From assembly GCA_002788855.1 (NCBI GenBank), contig PFSB01000021.1:494-64493 (forward strand): a stretch of 64,000 nt of DNA, written 5' to 3'. The stretch comes from Candidatus Roizmanbacteria bacterium CG_4_9_14_0_2_um_filter_38_17 (lineage in GTDB: Bacteria > Patescibacteriota > Microgenomatia > GCA-00278855). A program made the translations under genes and the position numbers. Positions 3,597-46,686 of the stretch are shown in pieces. Position 1 is the first letter of the stretch. Each line of letters starts with the position of its first letter. Below the pieces are notes generated by a model. The model did no database searches. It was not told where the DNA came from and saw nothing but the letters and a program-made list of their open reading frames with translations.

Positions 3597-4250
3597 ATGT
3601 TTAAGATTAAGAAATTCGATCTTCTCGTTTCTGTATACATTTTCTGTATTATGGTTTCTGAACTAATGGGAGGAAAAACTTTTCCACTAATAAAGATTGG
3701 AACTTACCAACTAAACGCTAGTGTAGCAATATTTGTCTTCCCTCTAATTTTTACTATTAATGACATGATTATTGAAGTTTATGGAAAAGAGAGAGCTAGA
3801 AGCTTAGTTCGCTCTGCGCTTTTTGTAATATTTCTAATTATGATATTCTCACTTTTAGCAATAAGCCTTCCACCATCTAGAAGATTTGCAGAGAGCGAAG
3901 AGGCGTATGACAATGTATTTAGTAAATCTGCCAGAATATCTTTTGCTAGTTTAACCGCTTTTGCCCTAGCTGAATTTACCGATCTTTTAATCTTTGTACA
4001 TATTCGAAAAAAGCTTGGCAAAGGTTCACTCTGGCTTCGAAATAATGTTTCAAACATCGTTTCACAATTTGTAGATACAACGATCTTTATGACGGTCGCT
4101 TTTTATGGCTTAGGACAGTCACTGGGAGACAATATATCTTTCTTATCCAGCATAATAATTCCATATTGGTTACTAAAAAGTTTCATGTCTATTATTGAAA
4201 CCCCCCTTGTCTACCTCGGAGTAACCTGGCTCAAGAAAGATAAGACATGA
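3597..4250 (+). CDS. Queuosine-precursor transporter, YhhQ/DUF165 (VUT) family
   Basis: Polytopic membrane protein with the family-conserved FPLIFTINDMIIEVYG motif. Confidence 0.7.
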   Translation: MFKIKKFDLLVSVYIFCIMVSELMGGKTFPLIKIGTYQLNASVAIFVFPLIFTINDMIIEVYGKERARSLVRSALFVIFLIMIFSLLAISLPPSRRFAESEEAYDNVFSKSARISFASLTAFALAEFTDLLIFVHIRKKLGKGSLWLRNNVSNIVSQFVDTTIFMTVAFYGLGQSLGDNISFLSSIIIPYWLLKSFMSIIETPLVYLGVTWLKKDKT

Positions 4251-5138: not shown

Positions 5139-6002
5139 ATGAAAGCAGGAGTAGTAGTTATGCTAGGTAGAACAAATGCGGGCAAGTCAACCCTTTTAAA
5201 TCGTCTTATTGGTCAAAAAGTAGCTATAACTTCAAGAAAACCTCAGACAACAAGATTTGCAATAAACGCAGTGTATGAGGACAAGAGAGGACAGATTATA
5301 TTTACAGATACACCTGGTGTATTTGAAAGATCCCCCGATCTATTGGCAAAAAAAGTTGGACTAAAACCCGAAGAAGCCCTTAAGGAAGGAGTAAATGTGG
5401 CAGTGTATGTAGTTGATCATACCCGCTACCGCGACGTAGAAGAAAATAGAACATTGGGTATGGTCAGAAAATTAGATGTTCCCAAAATATTAGTTTTTAA
5501 CAAGTGGGACATTAAGAAACCTAGTTTTTACGAAGAACTTCGCTTTATGGAAGAGGAGTTTGATACTACTCTATTTATCTCCGCACTAAAAGGACACAAC
5601 TTAAACTTATTACTTGAAGAAATTTTTAAACACTTACCCGAAGTCCAGAGCAAGTTAGTAGACACCAGTCAAATGGCAACTCCCTTGCTCAATGTGAATA
5701 GTAAACTATATATTGAAGAGATTATTCGTGAAAAAGCATTCCACTCACTCGGACAAGAACTACCATATACATTAACTGTAACAGCAAGTGAGATAACAGA
5801 AAGAGAAAATGGAACCTTATACATTAGAGCAGATATTGTTACTAATGAGGAAAGGTACAAGAAAATGATTATTGGGAATGAGGGTAAAAAAATTAAACAG
5901 ATAGGATTAACAGCCAGAAAAGAATTGGAAACAGCCAGAAATGAAAAGGTTTTTATCGAGCTTAAAGTTGTAGTCAATCGCCACTGGATGGAAGCCTTCT
6001 AA
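5139..6002 (+). CDS. era: GTPase Era
   Basis: GRTNAGKSTLLN (G1) and DTPG (G3) motifs, C-terminal KH domain. Start refined to MKAGVVVMLGR. Confidence 0.9.
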   Translation: MKAGVVVMLGRTNAGKSTLLNRLIGQKVAITSRKPQTTRFAINAVYEDKRGQIIFTDTPGVFERSPDLLAKKVGLKPEEALKEGVNVAVYVVDHTRYRDVEENRTLGMVRKLDVPKILVFNKWDIKKPSFYEELRFMEEEFDTTLFISALKGHNLNLLLEEIFKHLPEVQSKLVDTSQMATPLLNVNSKLYIEEIIREKAFHSLGQELPYTLTVTASEITERENGTLYIRADIVTNEERYKKMIIGNEGKKIKQIGLTARKELETARNEKVFIELKVVVNRHWMEAF

Positions 6003-7362
6003 GCAAGCGTTCAAGCGTTTCCTCTTTCCCAAGTATTTCCAGAGACTCAAATAGTGGTGGCCCAACCTTTCGTCCCGCCACACCAATTCGCACCTGCATA
6101 AATAATTTACTTTTAGATAACTCAAGTTTTTCTGCAAAGCTCTCCAACTGCTTATGCAGTATATCGTGATTCCAGTTATCTATCTTATTTAATTCATCAA
6201 TAACCTTCAAAATAATCTGCCCATCTACTTCTTTCTCATATTTACTAGGTCTTTTAAACAAAAACTCGCACATTGGCATATATTCAGACAGTTTCTTAAT
6301 CCTAGTTTGAGTGAGTGGCAGTGATTTCTCAACAATTTTCTCACTGTAGCTATCTCCAATATAATCCATTATTTGAGATTTGAGCTTTGGAATTTGAGAT
6401 TTTCGTATGTACTCTCCATTCATCCATTCGAGCTTTGTCACATCAAATATTGGAGCTGATTTACTCATTCGTGCAAAATCAAACTCGGCAATAAACTCCG
6501 AAAGCGTAAATATATCTCGACCATCAGACATTGAAAAACCCAATGTTCCGAAATAATTTAGCATAGCCTCTGGTAATAATCCTTGATCCTTATACCAACT
6601 CACCCAAACAGGATTTCGGCGCTTCGACAGCTTACTTTTATCTGGATTTCGAAGAAGTGGTGTGTGTATAAACTCTGGCAAATCCCATTCTAGAGCTTTG
6701 TATATTTGAACATGTTTAGGTGTCGAAGATAGCCATTCTTCACCTCTGATTACATGCGTAATACCCATCAAGTTATCATCAATCACAACTGCCAAATGAT
6801 AAGTAGGAAACCCATCAGATTTTAAAATTATCTGATCATCAATTAGCTCATTTTTAAAAACAACCTCTCCCCGAATTTTATCTTGGAACTTAGTTTCTCC
6901 CTTATTTGGCATCTTAAGCCTGACTACTTTTCCGGATTTTTTTCCAAGATCACGACACTTACCGTCATAAATAGGAGGCTTACCAGACTTTTGTTGTTCT
7001 TTTCGCATTTCATCTAGACGCTCCGACGTGCAATCGCAATAATAAGCATCACCTTGCTCAACTAGCTGTTTCGCATACTTTTGATAAATCTCAAGTCTTT
7101 TTGATTGTTTATATGGACCAACTTTACCGCCGTGAATAATACTCTCATCTGGATCCAAACCCAGCCATGATAAAGATTTAAATATTCTTGCCTCAGATCC
7201 TTCGACCTTTCTTTTCTGATCAGTATCTTCAATACGAACAATAAATTGACCCTTATGTTGTTTTGCATAGGCAAAATTTAGTAGTGCCGTATATGCATTA
7301 CCTACATGTAAGTCTTCACCAGTGGGAGAGGGCGCAATACGTGTACGAACGCTCCTTGTCAT
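5974..7362 (-). CDS. gltX: Glutamyl-tRNA synthetase
   Basis: Class I HIGH motif (PSPTGEDLHVGNAYTAL) and KMSKS-like KLSKR. Confidence 0.9.
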   Translation of the reverse strand: MTRSVRTRIAPSPTGEDLHVGNAYTALLNFAYAKQHKGQFIVRIEDTDQKRKVEGSEARIFKSLSWLGLDPDESIIHGGKVGPYKQSKRLEIYQKYAKQLVEQGDAYYCDCTSERLDEMRKEQQKSGKPPIYDGKCRDLGKKSGKVVRLKMPNKGETKFQDKIRGEVVFKNELIDDQIILKSDGFPTYHLAVVIDDNLMGITHVIRGEEWLSSTPKHVQIYKALEWDLPEFIHTPLLRNPDKSKLSKRRNPVWVSWYKDQGLLPEAMLNYFGTLGFSMSDGRDIFTLSEFIAEFDFARMSKSAPIFDVTKLEWMNGEYIRKSQIPKLKSQIMDYIGDSYSEKIVEKSLPLTQTRIKKLSEYMPMCEFLFKRPSKYEKEVDGQIILKVIDELNKIDNWNHDILHKQLESFAEKLELSKSKLFMQVRIGVAGRKVGPPLFESLEILGKEETLERLLRRLPSSGD

Positions 7363-11005: not shown

Positions 11006-11794
11006 ATGACTCTAATAGAAATTAGTATTGGTCCATTAACAGGTCAAGAAAGAGAACACATAAGGCGTATGCCTAATCCTTATGGTAAGCGTTTTGTTAA
11101 ACCCGAGTTTATCAACGACGGAATCCGTTGTGGAAGACTAGTACTCACACCAGTTCTTAAAGCCCTACATCAGCTAGGCATATACCCTGAAAAAGGACGG
11201 CTACTAAATAGATACGGCTATACAAGATCAACGCTATTATTTGGAACTACTCAGCATAATGCATCACATATAGAAGTCAAAACAGAAACTCCTCCAGAGC
11301 CCACACCACCAATCCAAATTGAACAACCTCTTATAATATCCAATCTATTAGAAATTACTACAGTACTTGACCCGAATCAGGTGACTTATGAAAACTCATT
11401 ATTAGAACTATGTGAAAGAAATCAAAAAAGAGCAGATGCGGTAGGTTTTGCTGCAGACCTAGTTTGCGAGTTATTGAACGAACACAAACCAGATCCTAAT
11501 GTTACCCTTAAACCTTGGCATTTTGTAGAATTTAAAGAAGCAAAGACAGGTATTGGACATGATGTAACTCTAAGAAGATTAAACAAAAAAAATCCACCTA
11601 TGGCAGCTGGAATATGGGGATTTATACAGGGAATGGAAAGAGGACGCGCTCCTACGTGTGGCGTAAGACTAGTTGATTCAATTGCTCAAACACTCGAAAA
11701 ACCAAGTTTAATAAACTCGATGTTTGAATTAGCAAAACCAGATCCACAATCGACAGATTCATGGAATATGGCAAATCCACAAATAAGTATATAA
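11006..11794 (+). CDS. Hypothetical protein (orphan, locally higher GC)
   Basis: Clean 262-aa ORF with no recognisable motif. A REP-like element lies just downstream. Confidence 0.5.
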   Translation: MTLIEISIGPLTGQEREHIRRMPNPYGKRFVKPEFINDGIRCGRLVLTPVLKALHQLGIYPEKGRLLNRYGYTRSTLLFGTTQHNASHIEVKTETPPEPTPPIQIEQPLIISNLLEITTVLDPNQVTYENSLLELCERNQKRADAVGFAADLVCELLNEHKPDPNVTLKPWHFVEFKEAKTGIGHDVTLRRLNKKNPPMAAGIWGFIQGMERGRAPTCGVRLVDSIAQTLEKPSLINSMFELAKPDPQSTDSWNMANPQISI

Positions 11795-11890
11795 AGATCC
11801 GATCTATATGAGCAAAACAAAGCGAGGCTTTTCATGAAATGGAAGACCTGTTTTAAGTTGAGCGGTTATATTCCGAGATGTGCGCTCATT

Positions 11891-11925
11891 CACACTCCAG
11901 GAGTGATATAGGTTAACACCTAAGG
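11891..11925 (+). repeat. Degenerate REP-family copy (REP-E)
   Basis: cacactccaggagtgatataggttaacacctaagg matches the cactccaggagtg palindrome and gttgacacct tail of the other copies. Confidence 0.5.
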
Positions 11926-11926
11926 T

Positions 11927-13552
11927 TTATCCTTGTTTTATATCTTTAATCATCAGCTGGAGGTTTTCATTTCCATTCCATTTATTTAGATCCAGAGTAA
12001 AAGCAATATCTACTGGTTCTTTTACATCTATTTTTTCAAGCATATATGCCTTACTAAACCCAATTGCATCTATCCCATTAACTTTTACTTTTAAGTGATT
12101 ACCTTCTTTACCAATTTTGCGAACATCATCAAGATATATCTGGTTCATACTAAATATGGGCTTCTCATTGCTTGTTCCAAATGGCTTTAGCTCCTCTATT
12201 TTATCCAATAGATCCCGCGTTATCTCTTCCATATTTAATTCTAGATCAATATTCAAAACTCTCTCCAAAAGCTCTGGATCAATCTGGTCTACAGCTTTTT
12301 GAATCAGTTCTTCTGCTACCTGAGAAATATTCCCCGTCTCTACCGAAAATCCCGCCGCCATTGTGTGCCCACCAGCGTTAACTAACTGGTCCTCAACTTG
12401 ACGAATAAGTTTAATTATATCTACACCAGGAATAGATCTAGCCGAAGCTTTAGAAATGCCATTTTCATTTTGAGCAATAACAATCGTGGGACGATAAAAG
12501 CGGCGACTTAGACTACCAGCTATAAGCCCTATTATTCCTTCATCATATGAAGAGTCAGCGATGACCAAAAGAGGTGGCATCCCTTTTACCCCTTTAAGTT
12601 GTTCTAGGCTCATATCAATCTGTTCATTTGTCAGCAACTGCCTCTTCCTATTTAGACTTGCAAGCTTTTGAGCAATCGCGATTGCTGCTCGTTCATCCTT
12701 TGTACAAAAAAGCCTTAGAGCATCTAAGGCGTCACCTAATCTACCCGCTGCGTTTATTCGGGGCCCTAGGATATACCCTATGTGATACGGATCAAGATCA
12801 GTTCCAAGTAGACCTGACTCTTGTAGTAGAGAACGAATTCCTACTCGACTAGATTGAGATAGTAGTGGTAGACCATGGCTAACTATTTGACGATTTGGAC
12901 CTTGAAGAGGTAATACGTCTCCAATCGTACCAAGAGCAGCAAGCGCTAGTCGCTCTGGATTGTCCCTCAGATTATCTATCTGTCTTGAAACAAACCAGGA
13001 AACTCCTGCTCCGGCAAGCGTAGTTGTATGCACAACCGCGATTGCATGACTACATAGCTTAACTACCTCAGATTTGTTAGGCGCTTGATGATGGTCTGTG
13101 ATAATAACATCTACTCCAGCGTCCGTTAATTGCATAACAAAATTGGAAGCTGTAATTCCATGATCTACCGTTATCACAAGAGTCGGATTATATTTTTCCT
13201 TAACACTCTTTATCCCTGCAGAAGAAAAACCATATCCCTCACTTTTCCGATCTGGAATATAGGGCCACACAACCGCACCTAGTTCATGCAAGGTCTCCCA
13301 CGCAATTGCAGTTGCCGATACACCATCTATATCAAAATCACCATATACTACAATTGTCTCCTTATTTTTTATGGCCTTCTTAATTCTGACTAGAGCTTTA
13401 GCCAGCTGAGCCTCATCTATTCCAACTTCTTTTGCTGTAAGAGTATAAGGAGAGTGAGGTTTTAGAAAATCACTCGCTGATTCTACTCCTCGTAATTTTA
13501 ATAAGTGAGTAAGGATATTTTCAGATTTACGTGTCTCAACATTCCAGCGCAT
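11927..13552 (-). CDS. recJ: Single-stranded-DNA-specific exonuclease RecJ
   Basis: DHH family motifs (DFDIDGVSATAI, DHG, ITDHHQ) and DHHA1-type C-terminal region. Confidence 0.85.
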   Translation of the reverse strand: MRWNVETRKSENILTHLLKLRGVESASDFLKPHSPYTLTAKEVGIDEAQLAKALVRIKKAIKNKETIVVYGDFDIDGVSATAIAWETLHELGAVVWPYIPDRKSEGYGFSSAGIKSVKEKYNPTLVITVDHGITASNFVMQLTDAGVDVIITDHHQAPNKSEVVKLCSHAIAVVHTTTLAGAGVSWFVSRQIDNLRDNPERLALAALGTIGDVLPLQGPNRQIVSHGLPLLSQSSRVGIRSLLQESGLLGTDLDPYHIGYILGPRINAAGRLGDALDALRLFCTKDERAAIAIAQKLASLNRKRQLLTNEQIDMSLEQLKGVKGMPPLLVIADSSYDEGIIGLIAGSLSRRFYRPTIVIAQNENGISKASARSIPGVDIIKLIRQVEDQLVNAGGHTMAAGFSVETGNISQVAEELIQKAVDQIDPELLERVLNIDLELNMEEITRDLLDKIEELKPFGTSNEKPIFSMNQIYLDDVRKIGKEGNHLKVKVNGIDAIGFSKAYMLEKIDVKEPVDIAFTLDLNKWNGNENLQLMIKDIKQG

Positions 13553-13585
13553 AAGGTATACTATATCATAGGAATTATATCTATT

Positions 13586-14932
13586 ATGCAGCTTAAACTA
13601 CCAGATTTACCAAGAAAAATTATTAACCAACTGCAACAAGCAGGTTTTGAGTGTTATGCAGTTGGAGGTGGTATCCGTGACTTACTCAGAAGCAAGTCAC
13701 CTACTGACTGGGATTTCACGACCGATGCCACTCCAGAAGAAATTCTTAAAGTTTTTCCTGATGGCTATTATGACAATAAATTTGGTACGGTTGGAATACC
13801 TATGAAAAATTCAATTATTGAGATCACAACCTACCGAACAGAATCTGAATACAAAGACAATCGCCGCCCGGAAAAAGTAGAATGGGGCAAATCTCTTGAG
13901 GAAGATCTCAATCGTCGTGACTTTACCATTAACGCCATTGCCACAAATGGCAAAGAGATCATTGATCCTTTTAACGGTCAATCTGACCTACAAAATAAGC
14001 TTATCCGTGCAGTTGGAGATCCAAATGCCCGGTTTAAAGAAGACGCACTGCGTATGTTGCGGGTAGTCAGACTCGCAACTCAACTTGAATTTTTGGTTGA
14101 GGATAAAACAAGAGATGCGCTTGAAAATGATGTTTCACTTCTTAAGAATATTGCACAAGAACGCGTTCGAGACGAACTGCTACGTCTGTTAAAAGCTGCT
14201 AATCCCGCCGATGGAATTCTCTTGCTTAAGCATACTGGTCTTCTACAGTACATTCTCCCTGAGCTTCTAGAAAGCTTTAAAATTGATCAAAAAAGCCCCG
14301 AGCGTCATCATATTCATGACGTAGGCACCCACTGTGTTGAAGCGCTTCGGTATTGCTCAAATCCTGATCCAGTCATAAGGCTTGCGGTTCTTCTACACGA
14401 TATTGGCAAGACTAAAACTGTAAACAAAGATAAATCTGGCATTACCACTTTTTATAATCATGAAGTTGCTGGAGCAAGTATGGCTAGAGATATATCTATG
14501 CGTCTTAAATTATCTAAAAAACAAACAGGTATGATTATTCGATTAGTGCGCTGGCATCAATTTAGTATGGAGGATACTCTGACAGATAAAGCAGTACGCC
14601 GCTTCATTAGAAACGTAGGACTAGAAAATATTCAAGCTATGCTAGATCTTAGAGTAGCTGATCGCAAAGGAAGCGGGGCCAAAGAAAGCTCCTGGAGATT
14701 CGAGTTATTTAGAAAACGCCTTATTGAAATTCAAAAAACTCCTTTCTCCATTCAGGATCTTAAAGTGGACGGTAACGATATAATAGAGGCTCTTAAAATT
14801 AAACCTTCCCGTCAAGTTGGAGAAATACTCGAAGCAATCTTTGATAAAGTAGACAATGACGAACTCCCTAATGAAAGAGAAAAATTACTGGAACAAATCA
14901 AATCTCTAACACCCACTCCAGGAGTGGGTTGA
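13586..14932 (+). CDS. cca: tRNA nucleotidyltransferase (CCA-adding) / poly(A) polymerase with HD domain
   Basis: GGxVRD and RRDFTINA Pol-beta nucleotidyltransferase motifs. HD domain HHIHDVGTH...LLHDIGK. Start refined to MQLKLPD. Last 7 codons (TPTPGVG*) are encoded by REP-A. Confidence 0.85.
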   Translation: MQLKLPDLPRKIINQLQQAGFECYAVGGGIRDLLRSKSPTDWDFTTDATPEEILKVFPDGYYDNKFGTVGIPMKNSIIEITTYRTESEYKDNRRPEKVEWGKSLEEDLNRRDFTINAIATNGKEIIDPFNGQSDLQNKLIRAVGDPNARFKEDALRMLRVVRLATQLEFLVEDKTRDALENDVSLLKNIAQERVRDELLRLLKAANPADGILLLKHTGLLQYILPELLESFKIDQKSPERHHIHDVGTHCVEALRYCSNPDPVIRLAVLLHDIGKTKTVNKDKSGITTFYNHEVAGASMARDISMRLKLSKKQTGMIIRLVRWHQFSMEDTLTDKAVRRFIRNVGLENIQAMLDLRVADRKGSGAKESSWRFELFRKRLIEIQKTPFSIQDLKVDGNDIIEALKIKPSRQVGEILEAIFDKVDNDELPNEREKLLEQIKSLTPTPGVG

Positions 14933-14946
14933 GTTGACACCTAAGG
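14911..14946 (+). repeat. REP element copy A
   Basis: acccactccaggagtgggttgagttgacacctaagg. Inverted relative to copy B on the other side of the RAYT gene. Confidence 0.8.
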
Positions 14947-14969
14947 AATATTTATAGTATTGTCATATT

Positions 14970-15662
14970 ATGCCTTCACGTAAAATACCTCTCATAACGC
15001 AGGGTATTTACCACATCTTTAATCGTAGTGTAGCTGGACAAACTATATTTAGAAATATAAGAGAATATCAAATATTTTTAGACTTATTAGAATACTACTC
15101 GTTTACCCATGCAAAACACCGCTTTTCTCACTATAGAAGACTCGAAGATGAAACAAAGAAGCAAACGCTCAATAAACTATATCAACAAAGCGATAAACTT
15201 GTAGATATATATTCTTTCTGCATTATGCCAAATCACTATCACTTACTATTAAAGCAACTAACCGATGATGGCATAAGCAAATTTATCAGACAAATCCAAA
15301 ATAGTTATGCCAGATACATCAATATCAAAACACAACGTAATGGAGCCTTACTTCAATCCCCATTTAAATCCGTTTTAATAGAGAATGACGAACAATTTAT
15401 CCATGTAGCAAGATATATTCACCTAAATCCCTTAACATCGTACATTCTAACAAACCAGTCCGAACTAGCTAACCTAGAGTGGTGCTCATATAAAGACTAC
15501 TGCAGTGCAAATAGTAGAGGTTTTGTTAACACATCAAACCTCATGTCCTACTACAATTCAATTGATGAATTAAACAAATTCACCCTAAATCAGGTTGATT
15601 ACCAAAGAGCACTAGCCAAGATAAAACATCTTACACTTGAAAAGTCCTTTCCAAATCCTTAA
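14970..15662 (+). CDS. REP-associated tyrosine transposase (RAYT; IS200/IS605-like Y1 HUH transposase)
   Basis: HUH motif MPNHYHLLL and catalytic-Tyr region ARYIHLNPL. Flanked by inverted REP copies A and B. Confidence 0.8.
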   Translation: MPSRKIPLITQGIYHIFNRSVAGQTIFRNIREYQIFLDLLEYYSFTHAKHRFSHYRRLEDETKKQTLNKLYQQSDKLVDIYSFCIMPNHYHLLLKQLTDDGISKFIRQIQNSYARYINIKTQRNGALLQSPFKSVLIENDEQFIHVARYIHLNPLTSYILTNQSELANLEWCSYKDYCSANSRGFVNTSNLMSYYNSIDELNKFTLNQVDYQRALAKIKHLTLEKSFPNP

Positions 15663-15693
15663 GTGTCAACCTAACCCACTCCAGGAGTGGGTT
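15663..15693 (-). repeat. REP element copy B (inverted orientation)
   Basis: gtgtcaacctaacccactccaggagtgggtt is the reverse complement of the copy A pattern. Confidence 0.8.
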
Positions 15694-15728
15694 CTCACAT
15701 TACGTTTCTGAAATGTAGCTAAATTCAT

Positions 15729-16568
15729 TTATTTCTTTTTAAGCAGCAAACTAAGGACTGGGACTGCTACAAATGGCGATGAATAAGTTCCAAGCACAGT
15801 TCCAATCAGAAGTGCAACCATAAACCAGCGAATAGTCTCACCTCCCAGAAGAATCATTGCTAATAACATAAACAATATTGTTAGAGAATTATTAATCGAC
15901 CTTACCATTGTCTCTGTTAAGGCGCTATTGGCAACTTTTGTAATATCTTTGGAGTTTTTATCTCCTGAGTTCTCTCGAATTCTATTAAACACCACTACCG
16001 TATCATGAACAGAAAATGACATCGTCGTTAAAAGCGCAGTAACAAATAATGCATCAACCTCAACAAGCATAAATTTACCTAAGACAGCAAATACACCAGC
16101 TAATATCAAGGTGTCATGCAGAAGTGCTACTATCGCAGCCATTCCATACTTTAAGTTCTTGAATGCCCAGGCCAGATAGGCAAGAATGCCTATCACAGCG
16201 ATAATTGCAGCTGTAAGGGTCTTATTTAATAACTCCTTACCAAGCGTTGGTCCTACTGTTTCAAACCGATCAATTTTAATCGATCCTGCAACTGAGGCTA
16301 TTTCCTCTCTAATCAAAGCAATTTTCTTTTGCTCGATAAAATCTGTTTTTATTAATACTTTTTCACCACTATCTTGTACAGCTTGGACATTGATGTCATT
16401 TTTGTTTAAAATAGTCAAGATTTCCTTATTATTAACCTCAATCAAGGTTCCTCCTGTAAAATCTATCCCTGGTTTTAGACCCCAAATAACTAATGCCAGA
16501 ATACTTATTCCTGCAAGAATACCTGAAGCCGTAAAATATATTCGCTTGTACTGTAGCCAGTTAATCAT
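15729..16568 (-). CDS. secF: Protein translocase subunit SecF
   Basis: SecD/SecF family membrane topology and GIDFTGG motif. 4-bp overlap with secD. Confidence 0.85.
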   Translation of the reverse strand: MINWLQYKRIYFTASGILAGISILALVIWGLKPGIDFTGGTLIEVNNKEILTILNKNDINVQAVQDSGEKVLIKTDFIEQKKIALIREEIASVAGSIKIDRFETVGPTLGKELLNKTLTAAIIAVIGILAYLAWAFKNLKYGMAAIVALLHDTLILAGVFAVLGKFMLVEVDALFVTALLTTMSFSVHDTVVVFNRIRENSGDKNSKDITKVANSALTETMVRSINNSLTILFMLLAMILLGGETIRWFMVALLIGTVLGTYSSPFVAVPVLSLLLKKK

Positions 16569-29133: not shown

Positions 29134-29348
29134 TAGCCCGCAAAATCACAAGATATTAATGAACTGGGAGCTGAGCATTAAATAGTCATTCGCTTTCGTC
29201 CAATAAAAAATATCATAGTTGATATGATAAGAGTTAGAGTTGCCACAATTAGAGACTATAGTCCCTCTATAAGAGATTCATATCCATCTCTAGGCTCAAA
29301 TAAAGGCTCTATTGCCACATAGAAAATGAAACCCTATAAATTCTAAAT

Positions 29349-29373
29349 GTGTCAAACGTCCAGCGTTTGACAC
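29349..29373. repeat. Perfect 10-bp-stem hairpin (gtgtcaaacg-tccag-cgtttgacac) adjacent to REP-C
   Basis: Shares the gtgtcaa/ttgacac half-site with the REP tail. Confidence 0.6.
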
Positions 29374-29394
29374 AGAAATAACTACTATATATAC

Positions 29395-29430
29395 AACCCA
29401 CTCCTGGAGTGGATTGAGTTGACACCTAGG
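29395..29430 (+). repeat. REP element copy C
   Basis: aacccactcctggagtggattgagttgacacctagg. Confidence 0.8.
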
Positions 29431-29524
29431 GATATCCATATCCCATACTCTATGTAGAAAAAAGTCTGATTAATATTAGAGAGCTTATTTGCAATCCCAT
29501 AAAAGGTCCAGCCTTTTATACTTC

Positions 29525-30895
29525 TTACTCCTCGTCCCATTTAATAAACTCGTACTCTGAGGATGTAGGAAAATAAGGAGGTGGACCATAACGAAGATGA
29601 CTGTCATATGTAATATCCCTATCAACAAAACCTGACCAAATTGGATTACCATAATTCCAGTACGACTTCTGATTGGAAATAACCGAACCATAAATCTCTA
29701 ACTTATCACGTATTGCGTTTGAATAATAACTACACACCCACCAATAGCTATAGAAGTGACGAATAATTCTGCCTTTCTGCGCCATTAAAGCTGCATCAAT
29801 CTGGAAAGTACTTGGAATATCCAATGCGTAATATATATCTTGTTGGGCAACTAATCCTAATGAATCTGACCCATCTTTTTCCTTATATATTAAATTGTCC
29901 AATATCCAGATCACTTCAGAGGAAGTATCTATCGGAAAAGATGCAGCCACAACTGTGGTTTTACCTTCCACAACTCCATCAATCCAGACTGTGTCTTCAA
30001 CAAAAATAATCTTATTATCACTTAGGCTATATGTTCCTATTAAGTTCTCTGTACGAATAACCTGATTTAATGTCTGACATCCTCCCTCTGGATCCCATCC
30101 CTGTCTTGATCTTGTACGATTAACCTCATAAACACTAACCGTTCCAGTATCATTAAAGCGTAAATGATAACCAAAATAAGAGGACGCAGCCAGGTATATG
30201 CCACTCTCTTGGGCAGATAGGCGCATATGGGCAAAATCTACCACCACACTATCAAAATCTATAGAAGTTGTGGGGTATTCCCACAGTGTATTATTAGGAC
30301 CATCTCCCCATACACCGTTCTTTGTATCAGATGGGCTACAGCCTGTCTCAAATCCACAGGTATAGGTCTCCTTAGCACTTGATACAACTGACTCATTAAT
30401 ACCATCCATACGAATTCCACCATTAGAGTGAACATCACCGTAAGTCGTAAGGCCTTGCCCGAACCATACATTAGCATTATGCAAAAAAGAAAACCTTGCG
30501 TATGACGGCTGACCATAGGCAGCTTCGATAGTCCGTTTAGCATTAGGCTCCTCCAAAGTCCAACCAGTCGAGACAATTGTAACGACACTTGACCCTTCCC
30601 CTGGTGGTATCACATCCAGCTCAAACTGGCCGATTTGATCTCCCTGTGGATCAAAATAATCATGTATATATGGACCAGGTTCTCCAGTACCATCCTGAAA
30701 GTCTTCTGGAGCATGCGCTAAATGCCAGCGATAATAGTTTGCTCCAGCCTCTGCTATATTAGTAGCCATCTGTCTATTCTCCTGGCGCACCCAACCCTTT
30801 ACATGCACTGCCGTTACTGCCACTAAACTACCTAAAATAATCACAGATAAAGTAGCGACTAATAATACAAGAATTGTAACAGATCCAACTTTCAT
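29525..30895 (-). CDS. Large N-terminally anchored pilus-associated protein (function unknown)
   Basis: Single N-terminal TM/pilin-like hydrophobic segment then a ~430 aa extracytoplasmic domain. 4-bp overlap with the upstream minor pilin. Confidence 0.45.
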   Translation of the reverse strand: MKVGSVTILVLLVATLSVIILGSLVAVTAVHVKGWVRQENRQMATNIAEAGANYYRWHLAHAPEDFQDGTGEPGPYIHDYFDPQGDQIGQFELDVIPPGEGSSVVTIVSTGWTLEEPNAKRTIEAAYGQPSYARFSFLHNANVWFGQGLTTYGDVHSNGGIRMDGINESVVSSAKETYTCGFETGCSPSDTKNGVWGDGPNNTLWEYPTTSIDFDSVVVDFAHMRLSAQESGIYLAASSYFGYHLRFNDTGTVSVYEVNRTRSRQGWDPEGGCQTLNQVIRTENLIGTYSLSDNKIIFVEDTVWIDGVVEGKTTVVAASFPIDTSSEVIWILDNLIYKEKDGSDSLGLVAQQDIYYALDIPSTFQIDAALMAQKGRIIRHFYSYWWVCSYYSNAIRDKLEIYGSVISNQKSYWNYGNPIWSGFVDRDITYDSHLRYGPPPYFPTSSEYEFIKWDEE

Positions 30896-31542
30896 AAATT
30901 TGTTTTTAAGTTTCTCAACTGTACCCCCGAACTAAGCTCAGCATTCTGCGGAGCTCTACCTGGATTCACATTTACAATCAAAAACACCCGCATATACTTA
31001 GTATCTATTAATCTAAATTGTGTATCTAGTGGGTTTCCAGCACCTTTAAGCGGCCAGTCTCCATTGTAATAGTAAAAAATTGGCGCACTCCCACTCTGGA
31101 TATACTCTGCTACAACCCGGGTTGCTTCATCTTCTACTAGATACAAAACTGGTATATCATCAGTAGGGTTAATCGTTCCCTTCATCAAACTTGTGTTATC
31201 AAGATAATACCTCACCCTCTCAACACGATCATCGTTATCTACATCCGCATAAAATATAAATTCCTGGTCGTCAGCCAACTCTATTGTATAGCCTCCATCT
31301 TCAGCTGGCTGTGCTTCACGAATTTCCTTAACCATAACATCTATTCCACCACGCGCTTCTTCTACTGCTTGAATTTCAGCAAACGAAAAGCTATAGGATT
31401 CAGCAACAAATCGTTGCACTCCAGCAAGCGCAATTAAGACAACTGTGCTTATAAAGCCAGCAATTATTACTTCAAGTAATCCAAATCCTTTATTAAGGGC
31501 TCTACTTTTGATTAAGAATGATGGTTGTAAATACATCTTCAT
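30892..31542 (-). CDS. Minor pilin / pseudopilin (prepilin-type N-terminus)
   Basis: KGFGLLEVIIAGFISTVVLIALAG is a prepilin cleavage/methylation motif (G|F...E+5). Confidence 0.65.
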   Translation of the reverse strand: MKMYLQPSFLIKSRALNKGFGLLEVIIAGFISTVVLIALAGVQRFVAESYSFSFAEIQAVEEARGGIDVMVKEIREAQPAEDGGYTIELADDQEFIFYADVDNDDRVERVRYYLDNTSLMKGTINPTDDIPVLYLVEDEATRVVAEYIQSGSAPIFYYYNGDWPLKGAGNPLDTQFRLIDTKYMRVFLIVNVNPGRAPQNAELSSGVQLRNLKTNL

Positions 31543-32881
31543 TTATCTGGATTGAAGAGGTTGCATCTTCATATCCTGTTAAAGAAATAGTTAACTCATA
31601 GGCAGCTGCGTTTAGAGAATTAAAGAAAGCATGACCAAAATCTGGATCACCCTCATCACCTGATTCGATCGTTTCATCATAAGACAATAAACCATTAATA
31701 AGTCTAGCAGTTGAACTTGAAAGTGGAACATCTCCGCTATCTGCTACTAATACCAATAAACTACCGTCGCCCGGGCTATCAGGCGCTAAGCTGAGATCTA
31801 TACTCAGTTGTTCGTCAGCATTCAATCCGATGGGAAGCGCAGGATTACTTCCTGCCAAATCATAAGAAACATCAACTACTTCAAACATATAACTATCAAA
31901 TTCCATATTAGAGAAAGTATAAGTACCACCTGCATTTGTCGAAACTAACTCATCAAATTTATATATAGGAGATTCCGTCTCATCATTTCCAATTATTTTT
32001 TCTCCTCTGACTCTAAGCTCCACATTTGTTAATGTAGGAAAACCAGCTAAACGAGATCCATAGGTCTTAACTGTCAATGTAGATACTTTATCGATTGCGA
32101 AGCTAGCTTCAGAAACTTGCCCTTCCAACACAGTTATATGAGATTTAGAGGAATTAGTAACTTCCTCTGCGCCATAGGTACGATCAGACGAGTATCCAGC
32201 TTTAGTTACTATAATTTCATAACTTTCAATTGCGCTAGGTGCACCAGGTAAGATAACGCGACCAAACGAATCAGAAGTTATCGTTAAGTCCACTTGAGGA
32301 TTAACTGTTGAATTAACAATATTCACGTCTGCACCATTTAAGGGGTTTCCTTCTGAATTAAAGACTAACAGAGAGAGCGTTCCACCTCCATCATTTGTCT
32401 CGATCTCTTTTGGAACAATATCAGTTACTAAAACTACTGGCCTACGGCCCGATGCAAATGCCCCTGCCCACTCAAGTTTAACGCGGACTCGCTTATAATC
32501 CGTATTTACCAAATCAGCCGGCGCTTCCCCATCAAATGGATCGTCTACGTACGCAATTGTTGTTGTCACTTCAAATATAATTCCCCCTAAGGAAACTTGC
32601 TCAATTGGCGCAATTGGTCCAGCTGGGATACCTCCAACTGTTCCTAGATCCTCGTAACTAAGGTTTCTGGCTTCCTCTATCTTTTCATTTGCAAGTAGCC
32701 TCGCCGTATGTCGAACACGAGTCTGTCCGATGCTTTCAAAAACTAGCTGGGTGATTCCAAATAAACTGCCAGTTACAATCAAAAAAATTGCCATCCCCAC
32801 AACGGCCTCAATAATAGTAAACCCATTCCAGGAATGTGCTTCACATTCCTGGAATGGGTGCTTGTTGCTCATATTTATCAC
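31502..32881 (-). CDS. Large minor pilin (PilV/FimT-like) with extended leader
   Basis: Motif ...HSWNG|FTIIEAVVGMAIFLIV. The 24-aa leader contains the in-frame palindromic insert (FQECEAHSWN). Confidence 0.6.
   Translation of the reverse strand: MINMSNKHPFQECEAHSWNGFTIIEAVVGMAIFLIVTGSLFGITQLVFESIGQTRVRHTARLLANEKIEEARNLSYEDLGTVGGIPAGPIAPIEQVSLGGIIFEVTTTIAYVDDPFDGEAPADLVNTDYKRVRVKLEWAGAFASGRRPVVLVTDIVPKEIETNDGGGTLSLLVFNSEGNPLNGADVNIVNSTVNPQVDLTITSDSFGRVILPGAPSAIESYEIIVTKAGYSSDRTYGAEEVTNSSKSHITVLEGQVSEASFAIDKVSTLTVKTYGSRLAGFPTLTNVELRVRGEKIIGNDETESPIYKFDELVSTNAGGTYTFSNMEFDSYMFEVVDVSYDLAGSNPALPIGLNADEQLSIDLSLAPDSPGDGSLLVLVADSGDVPLSSSTARLINGLLSYDETIESGDEGDPDFGHAFFNSLNAAAYELTISLTGYEDATSSIQINEDVFTTIILNQK
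32823..32859. repeat. Perfect 17-bp inverted repeat with 3-nt loop (cccattccaggaatgtg-ctt-cacattcctggaatggg), intragenic
   Basis: Read from sequence. Second copy of the same element family at 53809..53843. Confidence 0.9.
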
Positions 32882-34083
32882 TATATCTGAAGGTCGCCAA
32901 TTAATTTATATATTGGTGCAATAATTGAAATCACTAACAATCCAACTAATATTCCAACCACCAACACTAAAATTGGTTCTATGACTTGGGAAATATTTTT
33001 TAAATCTGATTCTGCCTCCTCGGCATAATAAGCACCAACTTCCGCCAATACATCTTCAAGATTTCCACTCTTTTCACCAACTGTTAACATCTGCGTAATA
33101 AAGGAAGGGAATATTTTTGTCTCTTTGAGAATTCTAGAAAGTTCCACACCTTTTAATAATCTTTTGCGAAACATAGGAGCCATTGCTTTTAGCTTAGGTT
33201 GAGAAACTGTGCTCACTGCGATGCTGATCGCTTCGGTAATTGATACTCCACTTTTTAATAGAACACCTAATGTTCTTGTTAATCGCGCATAGTCAATGCG
33301 GCGAATAATCGATCCAGTTATTGGCATATTGGCGAGTAATCCATTTACCACTGTTTTCAACTTGTTTCTGGGCACAAGAAACCAGGCCAAAACCAAACCA
33401 ACAATTGTACTGGGAAGTATTATAAATAAATGTTCTTGCGTAAACTCACCTGCATTTAACATAATTAAAGTAGGCAAAGGTAGATCTATATCCATAGTCT
33501 TAAATACTCCACCAATACGTGGAAGCACAAACACAACTAAAACAAATCCCATCAGAATCAAAGCAATAAATATCACAATTGGATACACCATTGCTCCTTT
33601 AATATTGCGCTGCAGTTCATATTCAGAGCGCAATTTATCTGATAAATACGAAAATGCTTCCTCTAGCGTTCCACTTGCCTCTCCGGCCTTGATCATAGCT
33701 ATAAAAGCTTCATCAAAAACATTAGGATAACGTCCTAATATTTCAGATACTTTCTTGCCTGATTTTAAGCCATAGGCAAGATCGTTTAAGATTTTACGCA
33801 TGGTCGGATTTTTTGTATCTTCTGCTAATGAATCAATGCCTTGAGACATAGATAAGCCAGAAGCCAACATTAAGCTCATATATCTGGTAAAACTCGATTT
33901 ATCCAGTAAGGAAACACTACGCACAAAATCAAACTTCTTATTTTGCTTTCTTAACTTGATATAAATTGGGGTTAAACCTTTCTGAGAAAGTGCTAATCCA
34001 ACTTCTTCTTCGCTCTTTGCAGTTACGCTTGCTGTATTAATTGTCCCATCTTCTGATAAGGCACGATAGTCATAAGTAGGCAT
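32881..34083 (-). CDS. pilC: Type IV pilus assembly platform protein PilC (GspF family)
   Basis: Two GspF repeats with three TM helices. 400 aa. Confidence 0.8.
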   Translation of the reverse strand: MPTYDYRALSEDGTINTASVTAKSEEEVGLALSQKGLTPIYIKLRKQNKKFDFVRSVSLLDKSSFTRYMSLMLASGLSMSQGIDSLAEDTKNPTMRKILNDLAYGLKSGKKVSEILGRYPNVFDEAFIAMIKAGEASGTLEEAFSYLSDKLRSEYELQRNIKGAMVYPIVIFIALILMGFVLVVFVLPRIGGVFKTMDIDLPLPTLIMLNAGEFTQEHLFIILPSTIVGLVLAWFLVPRNKLKTVVNGLLANMPITGSIIRRIDYARLTRTLGVLLKSGVSITEAISIAVSTVSQPKLKAMAPMFRKRLLKGVELSRILKETKIFPSFITQMLTVGEKSGNLEDVLAEVGAYYAEEAESDLKNISQVIEPILVLVVGILVGLLVISIIAPIYKLIGDLQI

Positions 34084-44978: not shown

Positions 44979-45066
44979 TAATATATTGGGCTCACAATAA
45001 TCCCATAAGTTTAACAGTTTTAGTGCGTATCGTCAACGTTTTTTCCAACTGCTTGGACAATATTAT

Positions 45067-45102
45067 AACCCACTCCTGGAGTGGGTTAGGTTGACACCTC
45101 GG
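45067..45102 (+). repeat. REP element copy D
   Basis: aacccactcctggagtgggttaggttgacacctcgg; overlaps last 4 codons of pyrD (..EVST*). Confidence 0.8.
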
Positions 45103-46237
45103 GATAATTACTATTTTCACCAATTGCCTCTGAAATTGAGTCGTATCCATCCTTTTCTAACAACTCCACCAACCCTTGATTAATTTCACTGATTACCTGA
45201 GGGCCTTGGTAAATCATACCCGTTATTAACTGAATGAGCGATGCACCCGCTTTTATTTTCTTATAGGCATCCTCTGCTGTAAACACCCCACCACAACCAA
45301 TAATCACCAACTTACCCTTGGTCTTATTGTATACATACTTAATTAGCTCGTCGGATAAATCCTTCACAACCTTTCCACTCATTCCTCCTTTATCTGGGAT
45401 ATTAGCATCTTTTATATTGGGATTGTTTCTAACTTTCGTCAAATTAGATATAACCAATCCATTTACTCGGTGATTAGCTACTACTTTTAATAATTCATCT
45501 ATTTCTTTTTTAGCAAGATCTGGAGACAACTTCACAAACACTGGTTTATTTACTTTAATCTTATCCAGTTCGGCTAATAATAGCCTAAGTCTTTTAGCAT
45601 CTGTAAAAGGTTCCCCTCCATACGCATTTGGACAGCTAATATTAACTGTTATATAACTTCCAATATTCACAAACACACTAAACGCTTTTGCATAATCTTT
45701 TATACCTGCCTTCGTAGAAACAGTTTTTTTGTTATTAGTCTTAGCTACACTAATTCCGATTGGAATCTTAAACCGCATATTTTTAAGCTTTGCAGATAAA
45801 ATTTGGCACCCCTTATTCTTTAATCCGTAATAAACTACAAGCGCCTTAGAATTAGGCAATCTCCAGAGCCTTGGCTTTGGATTACCGTCACAAGACTCAC
45901 CTGTAATTGAACCAACTTCCGCAAATCCAAACCCCACTGAAGGCAAGATCTGAGTAAGCTGGGCATCCTTATCAAAACCAGCGGCTAAGCCAACAGGATT
46001 AGAAAAATAAATGCCCAGTATGATTTGCGATAATTTTGGATTACTATAGCTAAATAGAAGATTGGTAATGGATCTTGTTAAAGAGAATTTCCCCAATAGC
46101 TGACCAACCTTTATCAGCTGATCGTGAACATCCTCCGGATCTAGTTTAAAAAACACCGGTTTTATAAAACTCCGATACACAAAACCAATAATTATATTTC
46201 TTAACTGCATATACACTACAACGTTAAGATAATACAT
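45086..46237 (-). CDS. pyrD: Dihydroorotate dehydrogenase (class 2-like with N-terminal extension)
   Basis: NPVGLAAGFDKD, catalytic region and GGMSGKVV FMN/substrate motifs. Confidence 0.8.
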   Translation of the reverse strand: MYYLNVVVYMQLRNIIIGFVYRSFIKPVFFKLDPEDVHDQLIKVGQLLGKFSLTRSITNLLFSYSNPKLSQIILGIYFSNPVGLAAGFDKDAQLTQILPSVGFGFAEVGSITGESCDGNPKPRLWRLPNSKALVVYYGLKNKGCQILSAKLKNMRFKIPIGISVAKTNNKKTVSTKAGIKDYAKAFSVFVNIGSYITVNISCPNAYGGEPFTDAKRLRLLLAELDKIKVNKPVFVKLSPDLAKKEIDELLKVVANHRVNGLVISNLTKVRNNPNIKDANIPDKGGMSGKVVKDLSDELIKYVYNKTKGKLVIIGCGGVFTAEDAYKKIKAGASLIQLITGMIYQGPQVISEINQGLVELLEKDGYDSISEAIGENSNYPEVST

Positions 46238-46287
46238 AAATTAAAAATAAGCAAGATTATTAGCAGTCTGGTGTGCTTTCTGCTAAA

Positions 46288-46332
46288 ACCACGCTTAGCG
46301 TGGTAAAAAAACCACGCTTAGCGTGGTAAAAT
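46288..46332 (+). promoter_or_regulatory. Tandem duplicated 22-bp unit (aaccacgcttagcgtggtaaaa x2) upstream of rnpB
   Basis: Each unit holds the palindrome ccacgc-ttag-cgtgg and a TGgTAAAAt extended -10-like box. The second unit sits ~10 nt upstream of the inferred rnpB 5' end. Confidence 0.45.
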
Positions 46333-46335
46333 ATA

Positions 46336-46686
46336 AGCTGAGAGGAGGATGGATAGCTACTGTGTACCCAACGTGGTTCATGGAGGAAAGTCCAGACAGC
46401 TCCGGATGAGGGGATGGAGTGTAAGCTCCGACTGGCAACAGCTGGTGTCTTGATTCCGAAAGGATGATAGAACAAGTCTAGAATTAACTAGACCTGAGAG
46501 CAACAGTGACGAATCTTTGGCTAAATTCAGAATAAACTCTGAGCATGTCGAAGGGGTGAAACGGGCAATCCCACCCGCTGCAACCGTTGACTTAACCGTT
46601 TTAAGGACATCCGGCCAAGGTTAGAAAACGGGCACAAGATAAATTGCTATCTAAAACAGAATCTGGCTTACAAGCCTCCTCTCACA
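46336..46686 (+). ncRNA. rnpB: RNase P RNA (bacterial type A-like)
   Basis: GGAGGAAAGTCCAGACAGCTCC matches the universal GGAAAGUCCGGGCUCC (P4 5' strand). GGGGTGAAACGGG matches the P10-P11 AGGGUGAAAnGGUG. 3' ACAGAATCTGGCTTA matches ACAGAACCCGGCUUA (P4 3' strand). 5' gagaggagg pairs with 3' cctcctctc as P1. The ORF 46260..46475 inside it is spurious. Confidence 0.75.

Follow-up and report, generated by a model that had tools for sequence, protein, structure and literature searches.

How does one and the same perfect palindrome come to be translated within two unrelated genes of a bacterium with a reduced genome? This question is raised by a 64-kb stretch of contig PFSB01000021.1 from Candidatus Roizmanbacteria bacterium CG_4_9_14_0_2_um_filter_38_17, which has a G+C content of 37% and is called the window in the following; all window counts refer to it. 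The MiaA homologues assign the host to the Microgenomates/Patescibacteria lineage of the Candidate Phyla Radiation (CPR). An initial annotation of the window had described two palindromes with 16-bp arms and a CCWGG core, one in a minor pilin gene and one in the tRNA dimethylallyltransferase gene miaA, and had interpreted them as a selfish repeat resembling Rickettsia palindromic elements (RPEs). Our analysis indicates that they are probably tail-less inverted doublets of a repetitive extragenic palindrome (REP)-type family, similar to the REP doublets forming hairpins (REPINs), that they most likely belong to a REP/REPIN system with a REP-associated tyrosine transposase (RAYT), and that they would survive in tolerant coding positions.

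Two hairpins in the reading frames of a pilin leader and MiaA

An inverted-repeat scan found both palindromes as hairpins with fully complementary arms (100%) and a 3-nt loop. The arms of the pilin hairpin comprise 18 nt (32821-32838/32842-32859), which means that this element, initially placed at 32823..32859, is present but starts 2 nt earlier. The arms of the MiaA hairpin comprise 16 nt (53809-53824/53828-53843), and identical 16-nt arms are common to both. The translations of the open reading frames (ORFs) agree with the initial description that no frame is disrupted: the minus-strand ORF 31502..32881 reads MINMSNKHPFQECEAHSWNG/FTIIE across the pilin hairpin (the slash marks the leader cleavage site), and the minus-strand ORF 53004..54104 reads through the MiaA hairpin as TFQECDTHSWNV. 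That nearly the same peptide is encoded on either strand was also correctly noted, with the spurious plus-strand ORF 32730..32924 reading PFQECASHSWNG.

Each arm is itself palindromic, and each hairpin is thereby built from a 13-17-nt unit that occurs twice in inverted orientation with a 20-bp period. In both genes, two CACATTCCWGGAATGTG units are spaced 20 bp apart, the first with A and the second with T at its center. The 13-mer palindrome CATTCCWGGAATG has four exact occurrences in the window, all of them within the two hairpins, and when up to two mismatches were permitted, 10 matches were found against 1.3 expected, a number that was reached in 0 of 100 shuffles. RNA folding resulted in -31.6 kcal/mol (z = -9.2) for the pilin hairpin and -28.7 kcal/mol (z = -7.8) for the MiaA hairpin. 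An assembly artefact was ruled out, as the same sequences occur in the independent assemblies L020 (JGI; 99.94% identical to the window over 21 kb) and L023 (ENA), and in protein P0002.

The pilin copy is the one whose arrival can be dated. The hairpin lies 13 nt past the pilin start codon, with pilC directly upstream of the pilin gene. Because no in-frame start codon exists in the pilin ORF between the hairpin and the G/FTIIE cleavage motif, and because the ATG is conserved in relatives, the hairpin is truly located inside the leader-coding region. The orthologues P0123-P0126, which have 90-91% amino-acid identity, are shorter by 13 residues and begin with MRLQG/FT(L/I)IE, whereas the pilins P0121 (100%) and P0122 (94%) begin with MSNKHPFQECEAHSWNG/FTIIE. 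The contigs L021 and L022 are 90.3-91.1% identical to the window at the DNA level over pilB-pilC-pilin, and they have ATGAGATTACAAGGATTTACC at the site where the window and L023 have ATGAGCAACAAGCACCCATTCCAGGAATGTGAAGCACATTCCTGGAATGGGTTTACT, which is a net gain of 36 nt. No half-palindrome is found in this empty site of L021/L022. As judged from these alignments, the pilin hairpin is a recent, lineage-specific insertion within the leader, in agreement with the initial annotation. Apart from this, the L023 pilin allele P0122 (430 aa) lacks about 78 nt (26 aa) in frame in comparison to window positions 32192-32258, with flanks that are 99.8-100% identical.

Among the MiaA orthologues, the 12 residues encoded by the element are carried only by the near-identical P0001 and by P0002 (83-86% identity, compared at the protein level), and the hairpin itself is identical in L020. 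As only P0001 and P0002 share it, the 12-residue sequence is not ancestral; the initial annotation had named the same residues in distant MiaA proteins as a sign of ancestry, and no distant orthologue was found to have them. The site corresponds to a variable loop in all Microgenomates MiaA proteins, which has about 22 residues in most orthologues and is short only in P0003 (about 60% identity). In L024 and L025, the coding sequence of this loop consists of tandem (AAATTCC)n heptamers, which share the ATTCCA motif. Solved MiaA structures can be aligned to residues 2-48 and 78-327, but have only about 6 residues opposite residues 49-77. The long loop is lineage-specific, and the initial assumption that it is a surface loop in known MiaA structures needs to be refined, as these show only the connection of about 6 residues. 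A gain of 12 residues in MiaA, as initially described, is not demonstrated, as most Microgenomates orthologues have an equally long loop and no empty site was found in close relatives.

An AlphaFold2 model of MiaA with a mean predicted local distance difference test (pLDDT) score of 84.8 has a beta-hairpin at this site, with strands 56-60 and 72-78. The pLDDT falls below 50 in only two segments, 62-67, which is the hairpin tip inside the element, and 198-209. In the initially suggested mapping of the 12 residues, a low-confidence loop tip thus lies within them, albeit in a predicted model and not in a solved loop. As the loop is lineage-specific and variable and its tip is of low confidence, the position is tolerant and an insertion is plausible, and the MiaA copy may have arisen in this way.

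MiaA has a second variable loop, encoded at 53383-53435 on the minus strand, in which (AAAATCC)x2 heptamers flank the GC-rich quasi-palindrome CCTGCCGGCGGACAGG. This insert is in frame, encodes IQNPTTPAGGQESKIQ, is absent from P0002, and falls below a pLDDT of 50 in the model. At both MiaA loops, (AAATTCC)n/(AAAATTC)n arrays are found in orthologues, L024 has the similar GC core CCTCAGGCGGGGCAGG, and 'PAGGQ'-like peptides recur in several of them. An in-frame tandem heptamer in the style of these MiaA-loop repeats of relatives, ATTTGAG x4.6, is also found at 6371-6402 in the gene for the class I tRNA synthetase GluRS (5974..7362, minus strand).

The repeat family and a RAYT-like gene

The unit of the family is the 13-nt palindrome CA(T/C)TCCWGGA(A/G)TG, followed in extragenic copies by 7 nt and then by T(T/A)GAC(A/C)CCT..GG. 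A relaxed 13-mer search revealed five window copies of the core CACTCCWGGAGTG, which is identical to the coding 13-mer at 11 of 13 positions and has two symmetric differences (a C/T and G/A pair). The five copies align as a repeat of about 38 nt, AACCCACTCCWGGAGTGGGTT-RRGTTGACACCTAAGG, and have the palindrome-N7-TTGAC geometry that also characterizes the C-type units of relatives described below. All five are located at gene 3' ends, two between convergent and three between unidirectional genes, with none between divergent genes in the 64 kb, and three of them contribute final codons or a stop codon, namely to the genes for the CCA-adding enzyme and dihydroorotate dehydrogenase (DHODH) and to ORF 14970. 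No GTAG adjoins any window copy, and in some relatives GTA precedes CATTCC. None of the REPs in the region 11500-16000 scored terminator-like and no T-runs follow the REPs, and they thus do not qualify as intrinsic terminators. Upstream of the REP at 29398, at a distance of 25 nt, there is a perfect hairpin, TGTGTCAAACG-TCCAG-CGTTTGACACA (29348-29374), which may be a REP derivative, with arms that resemble the REP tail (GTTGACAC).

ORF 14970..15662 encodes a RAYT-like protein. It matches the Pfam family PF01797 (Y1_Tnp) with 36.7 bits (cut-off 23), and among the NCBIfam families it scores best against NF047646, 'REP-associated tyrosine transposase' (57.4 bits, E = 1.4e-15), compared with 16.4 bits (E = 0.008) for IS200. 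The HUH motif (MPNHYHLL) and the YIxxNP motif (RYIHLNP) align to those of the E. coli TnpA-REP structure 4ER8. The gene is bracketed by the REPs 14911-14946 (+) and 15657-15693 (-) in inverted orientation, which is the layout of a REPtron. The features of the window are compiled in Table 1.

Table 1. Positions of the coding doublets, their host genes, the tailed REP copies and the RAYT-like gene in the window.
Feature	Position	Strand	Remarks
REP copy between convergent ORF 11006..11794 and recJ	11893..11925	+	
REP copy (ACCCACTCCAGGAGTGGGT + TGAGTTGACACCTAAGG)	14911..14946	+	24 nt upstream of the RAYT start; last codons and stop of the CCA-adding enzyme gene
RAYT-like Y1/HUH transposase, 230 aa	14970..15662	+	HUH in MPNHYHLLL; tyrosine motif ARYIHLNP
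REP copy, inverted, at the RAYT 3' end	15657..15693	-	tail gives the RAYT stop codon
REP copy between two minus-strand pilus-cluster genes	29398..29431	+	94 nt past the stop of ORF 29525..30895
Minor (pseudo)pilin gene, prepilin leader ending G/FTIIE	31502..32872	-	pilB-pilC-pilin operon; neighbors T2SSE, T2SSF
Hairpin doublet ACCCATTCCAGGAATGTG-AAG-CACATTCCTGGAATGGGT (coding strand)	32821..32859	-	in frame in the pilin leader; encodes PFQECEAHSWNG
REP copy over the DHODH gene 3' end	45066..45103	+	tail encodes ...PEVST and stop; conserved in L020
miaA (tRNA dimethylallyltransferase)	53004..54011	-	PDB 2qgn, E = 6e-51
Hairpin doublet ACATTCCAGGAATGTG-ATA-CACATTCCTGGAATGT (coding strand)	53809..53843	-	in frame, MiaA residues 57-68; encodes TFQECDTHSWNV

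One scan each of metagenome and genome collections with the doublet pattern, for which the chance expectation is far below 1, resulted in 17 loci, and a scan of viral contigs in 0 matches. A protein profile built from four sequences gave only three unrelated repeat proteins at E <= 1e-3, a level beyond the reach of a single 12-aa motif. The loci with a window-like G+C content (34-41%) can be sorted into three architectures. Class A are hairpins with 2-3-nt loops and includes the two window copies, L014, and L015 8407-8440. Class B has a 9-11-nt loop with AGGTTG (L004/L010, L005/6/8/16, L012, and L017), and in class C, the units are single or in tandem, and nnnTAGGT(T/A)GAC follows every one of them (four sites within 9.3 kb in L003, and L013/15/18). 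The central bases are complementary in 10 of 10 independent hairpin doublets, a set that includes L007 (48% G+C) and L019 (57%). In L007, the doublet at 4049-4085 is an inverted CATTCCWGGAATG doublet with a 3-nt loop, 8 nt past a stop codon. The arms of L015 8407-8440, CATTCCAGGAGTGTGC/GCACACTCCTGGAATG, carry a compensated A-T to G-C change, by which the long hairpin remains perfect while the symmetry of each 13-mer is broken, indicating that the long hairpin is the conserved structure.

A connection between the coding and the tailed variants is suggested by hybrid units in relatives, namely CACTCC-A-GGAATG in L003 and CATTCC-A-GGAGTG in L015, and the CATTCC units of L003 and L013 carry the same pal-N7-T(T/A)GAC tail. 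Further coding copies exist as well. In L017, a B-type doublet encodes HSRNVNLAHSWNV in frame inside the 'Competence' domain of ComEC, and the Pfam match spans the insert (256 residues versus 243 profile positions). In L015, the C-terminal tail of a GT2/PMT protein (glycosyltransferase) contains an A-type doublet, again in frame. The lack of any further copies had been named initially as an argument against a mobile repeat; further copies do exist elsewhere, namely in L014, ComEC, and the glycosyltransferase gene. Together with the empty pilin site and the lack of the 12 residues in distant MiaA proteins, they support the initial view of a selfish palindromic repeat that is in frame in unrelated genes. 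The 21-kb contig L026, which encodes a pilin relative with 64% identity, contains no family member, and the distribution is therefore patchy. At three sites of L003 (3470-3520, 5258-5310, and 9107-9160), REP-type units continue into a 27-nt hairpin insert, CACGGAACCATTCGATTCGTGGCAGG, which is conserved and separates TTGAC from CACACCTGG, showing that modular variants of the repeat exist.

Both 13-mer variants are free of stop codons in all six frames, but TGA and TAA are present in the tail. Doublets without a tail can thus persist in those ORFs in which the additional 12-13 residues are harmless. A plausible course of events would be that the RAYT recognizes single-stranded REP hairpins, which it would now and then cut and rejoin elsewhere. 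With a stop-free 13-mer and a doublet gain of 36-39 nt, insertions in tolerant places would survive selection and be translated; such places would here be the cleaved pilin leader, the disordered surface loop of MiaA, the ComEC loop, and the C-terminal tail. We infer that the RAYT mobilizes the REP units, and the CATTCC doublets may be served by the RAYT of the window or by a paralogue.

Origin of the coding doublets

Several observations weigh against a REP/REPIN-RAYT origin of the coding doublets. The three A-type copies with 3-nt loops have identical arms but different loops (AAG, ATA, and ATG), which would not be predicted by simple copy-and-paste of one master element. The RAYT-flanking REPs and the coding doublets disagree at 2 of 13 core positions, and the doublets are without the TTGAC tail, which is why their service by this RAYT can only be inferred; no RAYT was found adjoining CATTCC units in the examined parts of related contigs. 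The NF047646 score of 57.4 bits is below the curated equivalog cut-off of 80, and a GTAG/GT[AG]G tag is not present at the repeats. At the pilin site, the insertion boundaries are ambiguous, with 37 nt in and 1 nt out being a possible alternative, and no clear target-site duplication was found there. For miaA, there is no empty allele among close relatives, and orthologous loops are repeat-rich at the same spot, so that an origin in situ is possible. The same inverted CATTCCWGGAATG doublet with a 3-nt loop also occurs at 5791-5823 of L019, a contig with 57% GC from a metagenome-assembled genome of Acidobacteriota, where a peptidase-M24-family ORF contains it in frame and one arm encodes IPGM. 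Finally, the 64 kb provide only two CATTCC doublets and five REPs for counting.

These points have to be compared with what other explanations can account for. The palindromes could have been selected as cis-acting RNA or DNA hairpins that stabilize mRNA, attenuate translation or transcription, or mark intercistronic processing sites, with the pilin copy tuning expression. The very stable folds, the position of the pilin and L015 copies at gene junctions and of the REPs at 3' ends, and the compensated changes that preserve the long hairpin are all in line with such a role, which has been reported for REPs (PMC3733652). However, such a role leaves unexplained why copies lie in the middle of MiaA and ComEC, why a RAYT is associated with the repeats, and why a conserved operon recently gained a copy in one lineage. 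In addition, no U-tract follows the hairpins, none of which scored terminator-like. We therefore consider selection as a cis-acting hairpin unlikely as the origin of the doublets; it is compatible with a REP origin as a secondary effect, but not as its replacement. Improbable in our view is an operator function, in which the 13-mer would be bound by a dimeric transcription factor at promoters composed of the palindrome, 7 nt, and a -35-like TTGACA, the coding doublets being two operators 20 bp apart. It is true that the pal-N7-T(T/A)GAC(A/C) geometry is fixed across lineages and that one copy upstream of the RAYT gene matches a promoter at 10 of 12 positions. Nevertheless, the TTGACA of four of the five window copies points into or away from gene 3' ends, two copies lie between convergent genes, and promoter-like matches are not enriched in comparison to shuffles. 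Moreover, the coding doublets have no TTGACA, and L015 retains the long hairpin while losing the symmetry of the 13-mer.

If the palindromes had instead arisen in situ and independently at each site, by template-switching during replication (fold-back copying) in repeat-prone sequence, perfect arms and variable loops would be expected, and the tandem (AAATTCC)n arrays with their ATTCCA motif in orthologous MiaA loops, as well as the L019 arm that encodes IPGM in a peptidase-M24-family ORF, would fit as well. Identical 16-nt arms at the unrelated pilin, MiaA, and L014 loci are not explained in this way, and neither are the lack of a half-palindrome at the empty pilin site and the occurrence of the same unit in a dispersed family that has a RAYT and a conserved tail, which renders template-switching quite improbable. 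A function as DNA-uptake sequence or as CCWGG-type restriction-modification signal is suggested by the dependence of CPR bacteria on pili and ComEC and by the CCWGG core. Neisseria uptake sequences form inverted pairs at gene ends. With about one copy per 7-10 kb, and not about one per kb, the density argues against uptake sequences, and we regard this group of explanations as extremely improbable. A CCWGG restriction-modification signal was rejected, as the observed numbers equal the expected ones (CCAGG, 44 versus 42.4; CCTGG, 46 versus 45.9).

The REP/REPIN-RAYT explanation, which we consider probable, can be extended in a speculative manner. A GTAG-less REP-RAYT system may be active in CPR/Patescibacteria, with stop-free doublets colonizing essential genes, and together with the second class of inserts, the A-rich heptamer arrays around a GC-rich core in the MiaA loops, it may be a general source of lineage-specific loops and extensions in CPR proteins. 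As a whole, this generalization is tentative and rather unlikely to hold.

Some further features of the window were noted. No Rfam family was found at the gathering threshold across the window. At 46341-46686 (+), an RNase P RNA (bacterial class A) scores 79 bits and is missed by a default Rfam scan because the gathering score is 100. A 141-nt part of it matches the end of contig L001 with 100% identity, whereas this contig is otherwise only about 77% identical. Directly upstream of this gene, there is a perfect 23-nt tandem duplication (46285-46331, AAAACCACGCTTAGCGTGGTAAA) with a small hairpin in each copy. The overlapping ORFs 48237..48989 and 48949..49755 (+) correspond to one 505-aa gene in L020, and the single gap in the L020 alignment suggests a 1-nt indel, either a frameshift or a sequencing error. 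An intergenic array of the 9-mer GCCGAAGGT (x7.4, 93% matches) is located at 2231-2297 between the Obg and ATP-grasp genes and is GC-rich in this 37% GC genome.

Relation to known palindromic elements

Like miniature inverted-repeat transposable elements, the doublets are short, non-autonomous inverted repeats that form stable hairpins. Unlike these, they have no detectable target-site duplication and no internal sequence derived from an insertion sequence, and their size is far below the typical range. Flanking direct repeats are inconsistent, with GCG/GCG at miaA and none at the pilin gene, and the whole element is an inverted repeat.

With the RPEs, to which the palindromes had been likened initially, they share the nature of palindromic selfish DNA that is translated as an extra peptide at surface-exposed positions of unrelated proteins, here in the pilin leader, the MiaA loop, ComEC, and the GT2/PMT C-terminus. 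In size, they do not agree with RPEs, which have about 100-150 bp (RPE-1 type, about 150 bp; PMC10969869) and about 30-50 conserved residues, in comparison to 35-39 nt and 12-13 residues here, where in addition a candidate transposase is present. The likeness to RPEs thus holds for the selfish in-frame insertion, but the closest identity is that of a REP/REPIN with a RAYT-like transposase in the same window. In this context, it is of interest that RPE-4 and RPE-6 of R. conorii have been classed as CGTC REPs (PMC3733652).

REPtrons, in which REPs or REPINs are associated with a RAYT (TnpA-REP), are known from E. coli, Pseudomonas, and Stenotrophomonas (PMC3116915, PMC5581495, PMC6006769). The family described here resembles them by its short palindromes, of which the five tailed copies in the 64 kb all lie at 3' ends, next to convergent or unidirectional genes, a distribution that matches the one described in PMC3733652, by inverted doublets that form long hairpins, by sub-families with compensated stem changes, and by a single HUH/Y1 transposase gene between inverted REPs (layout as in PMC6006769, PMC5581495). 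It differs by the lack of the GTAG/GT[AG]G tag, in place of which there is the TTGACACCT tail at a distance of 7 nt from the 13-mer, which is fully symmetric around CCWGG; atypical REP classes without GTAG tag have been reported (PMC6006769). With 35-39 nt and a 3-11-nt spacer, the doublets are also far below the length of typical REPINs, the host belongs to the CPR/Microgenomates, and the hidden Markov model score of the RAYT is below the curated cut-off. As far as can be judged from sequence comparison, a REP family without GTAG that combines a fully symmetric CCWGG-centered core, a TTGAC tail, and very short doublets appears to be new, and in the literature searched we found no report linking REPIN/RAYT to Patescibacteria. 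REP/RAYT biology would thereby be extended to an ultra-small, genome-reduced CPR bacterium. For the annotation of such genomes, the hairpins explain odd leader and loop sequences as well as some C-terminal extensions and stop codons.

Intragenic in-frame REPs as such are not new, as they have already been described in other phyla; what is new is the CPR lineage. The published cases include dimers, N- and C-terminal positions, REPs that provide stop codons, and REPs in tRNA-modification genes (Di Nocera et al. 2013, PMC3733652), and REPs were also found in frame within tnpA-REP genes (PMC6006769). In agreement with these cases, the repeats described here occur as monomers or dimers in ORFs, keep the frame, are often N- or C-terminal, can supply stops, and affect tRNA-modification and housekeeping genes, illustrating how housekeeping proteins can acquire additional peptides from a stop-free repeat and yet not be inactivated. 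In contrast to the published intragenic REPs, they belong to another repeat family and another phylum, and they include a dated case of a REP doublet that entered a coding sequence, with the site being empty in a relative that is about 90% identical.

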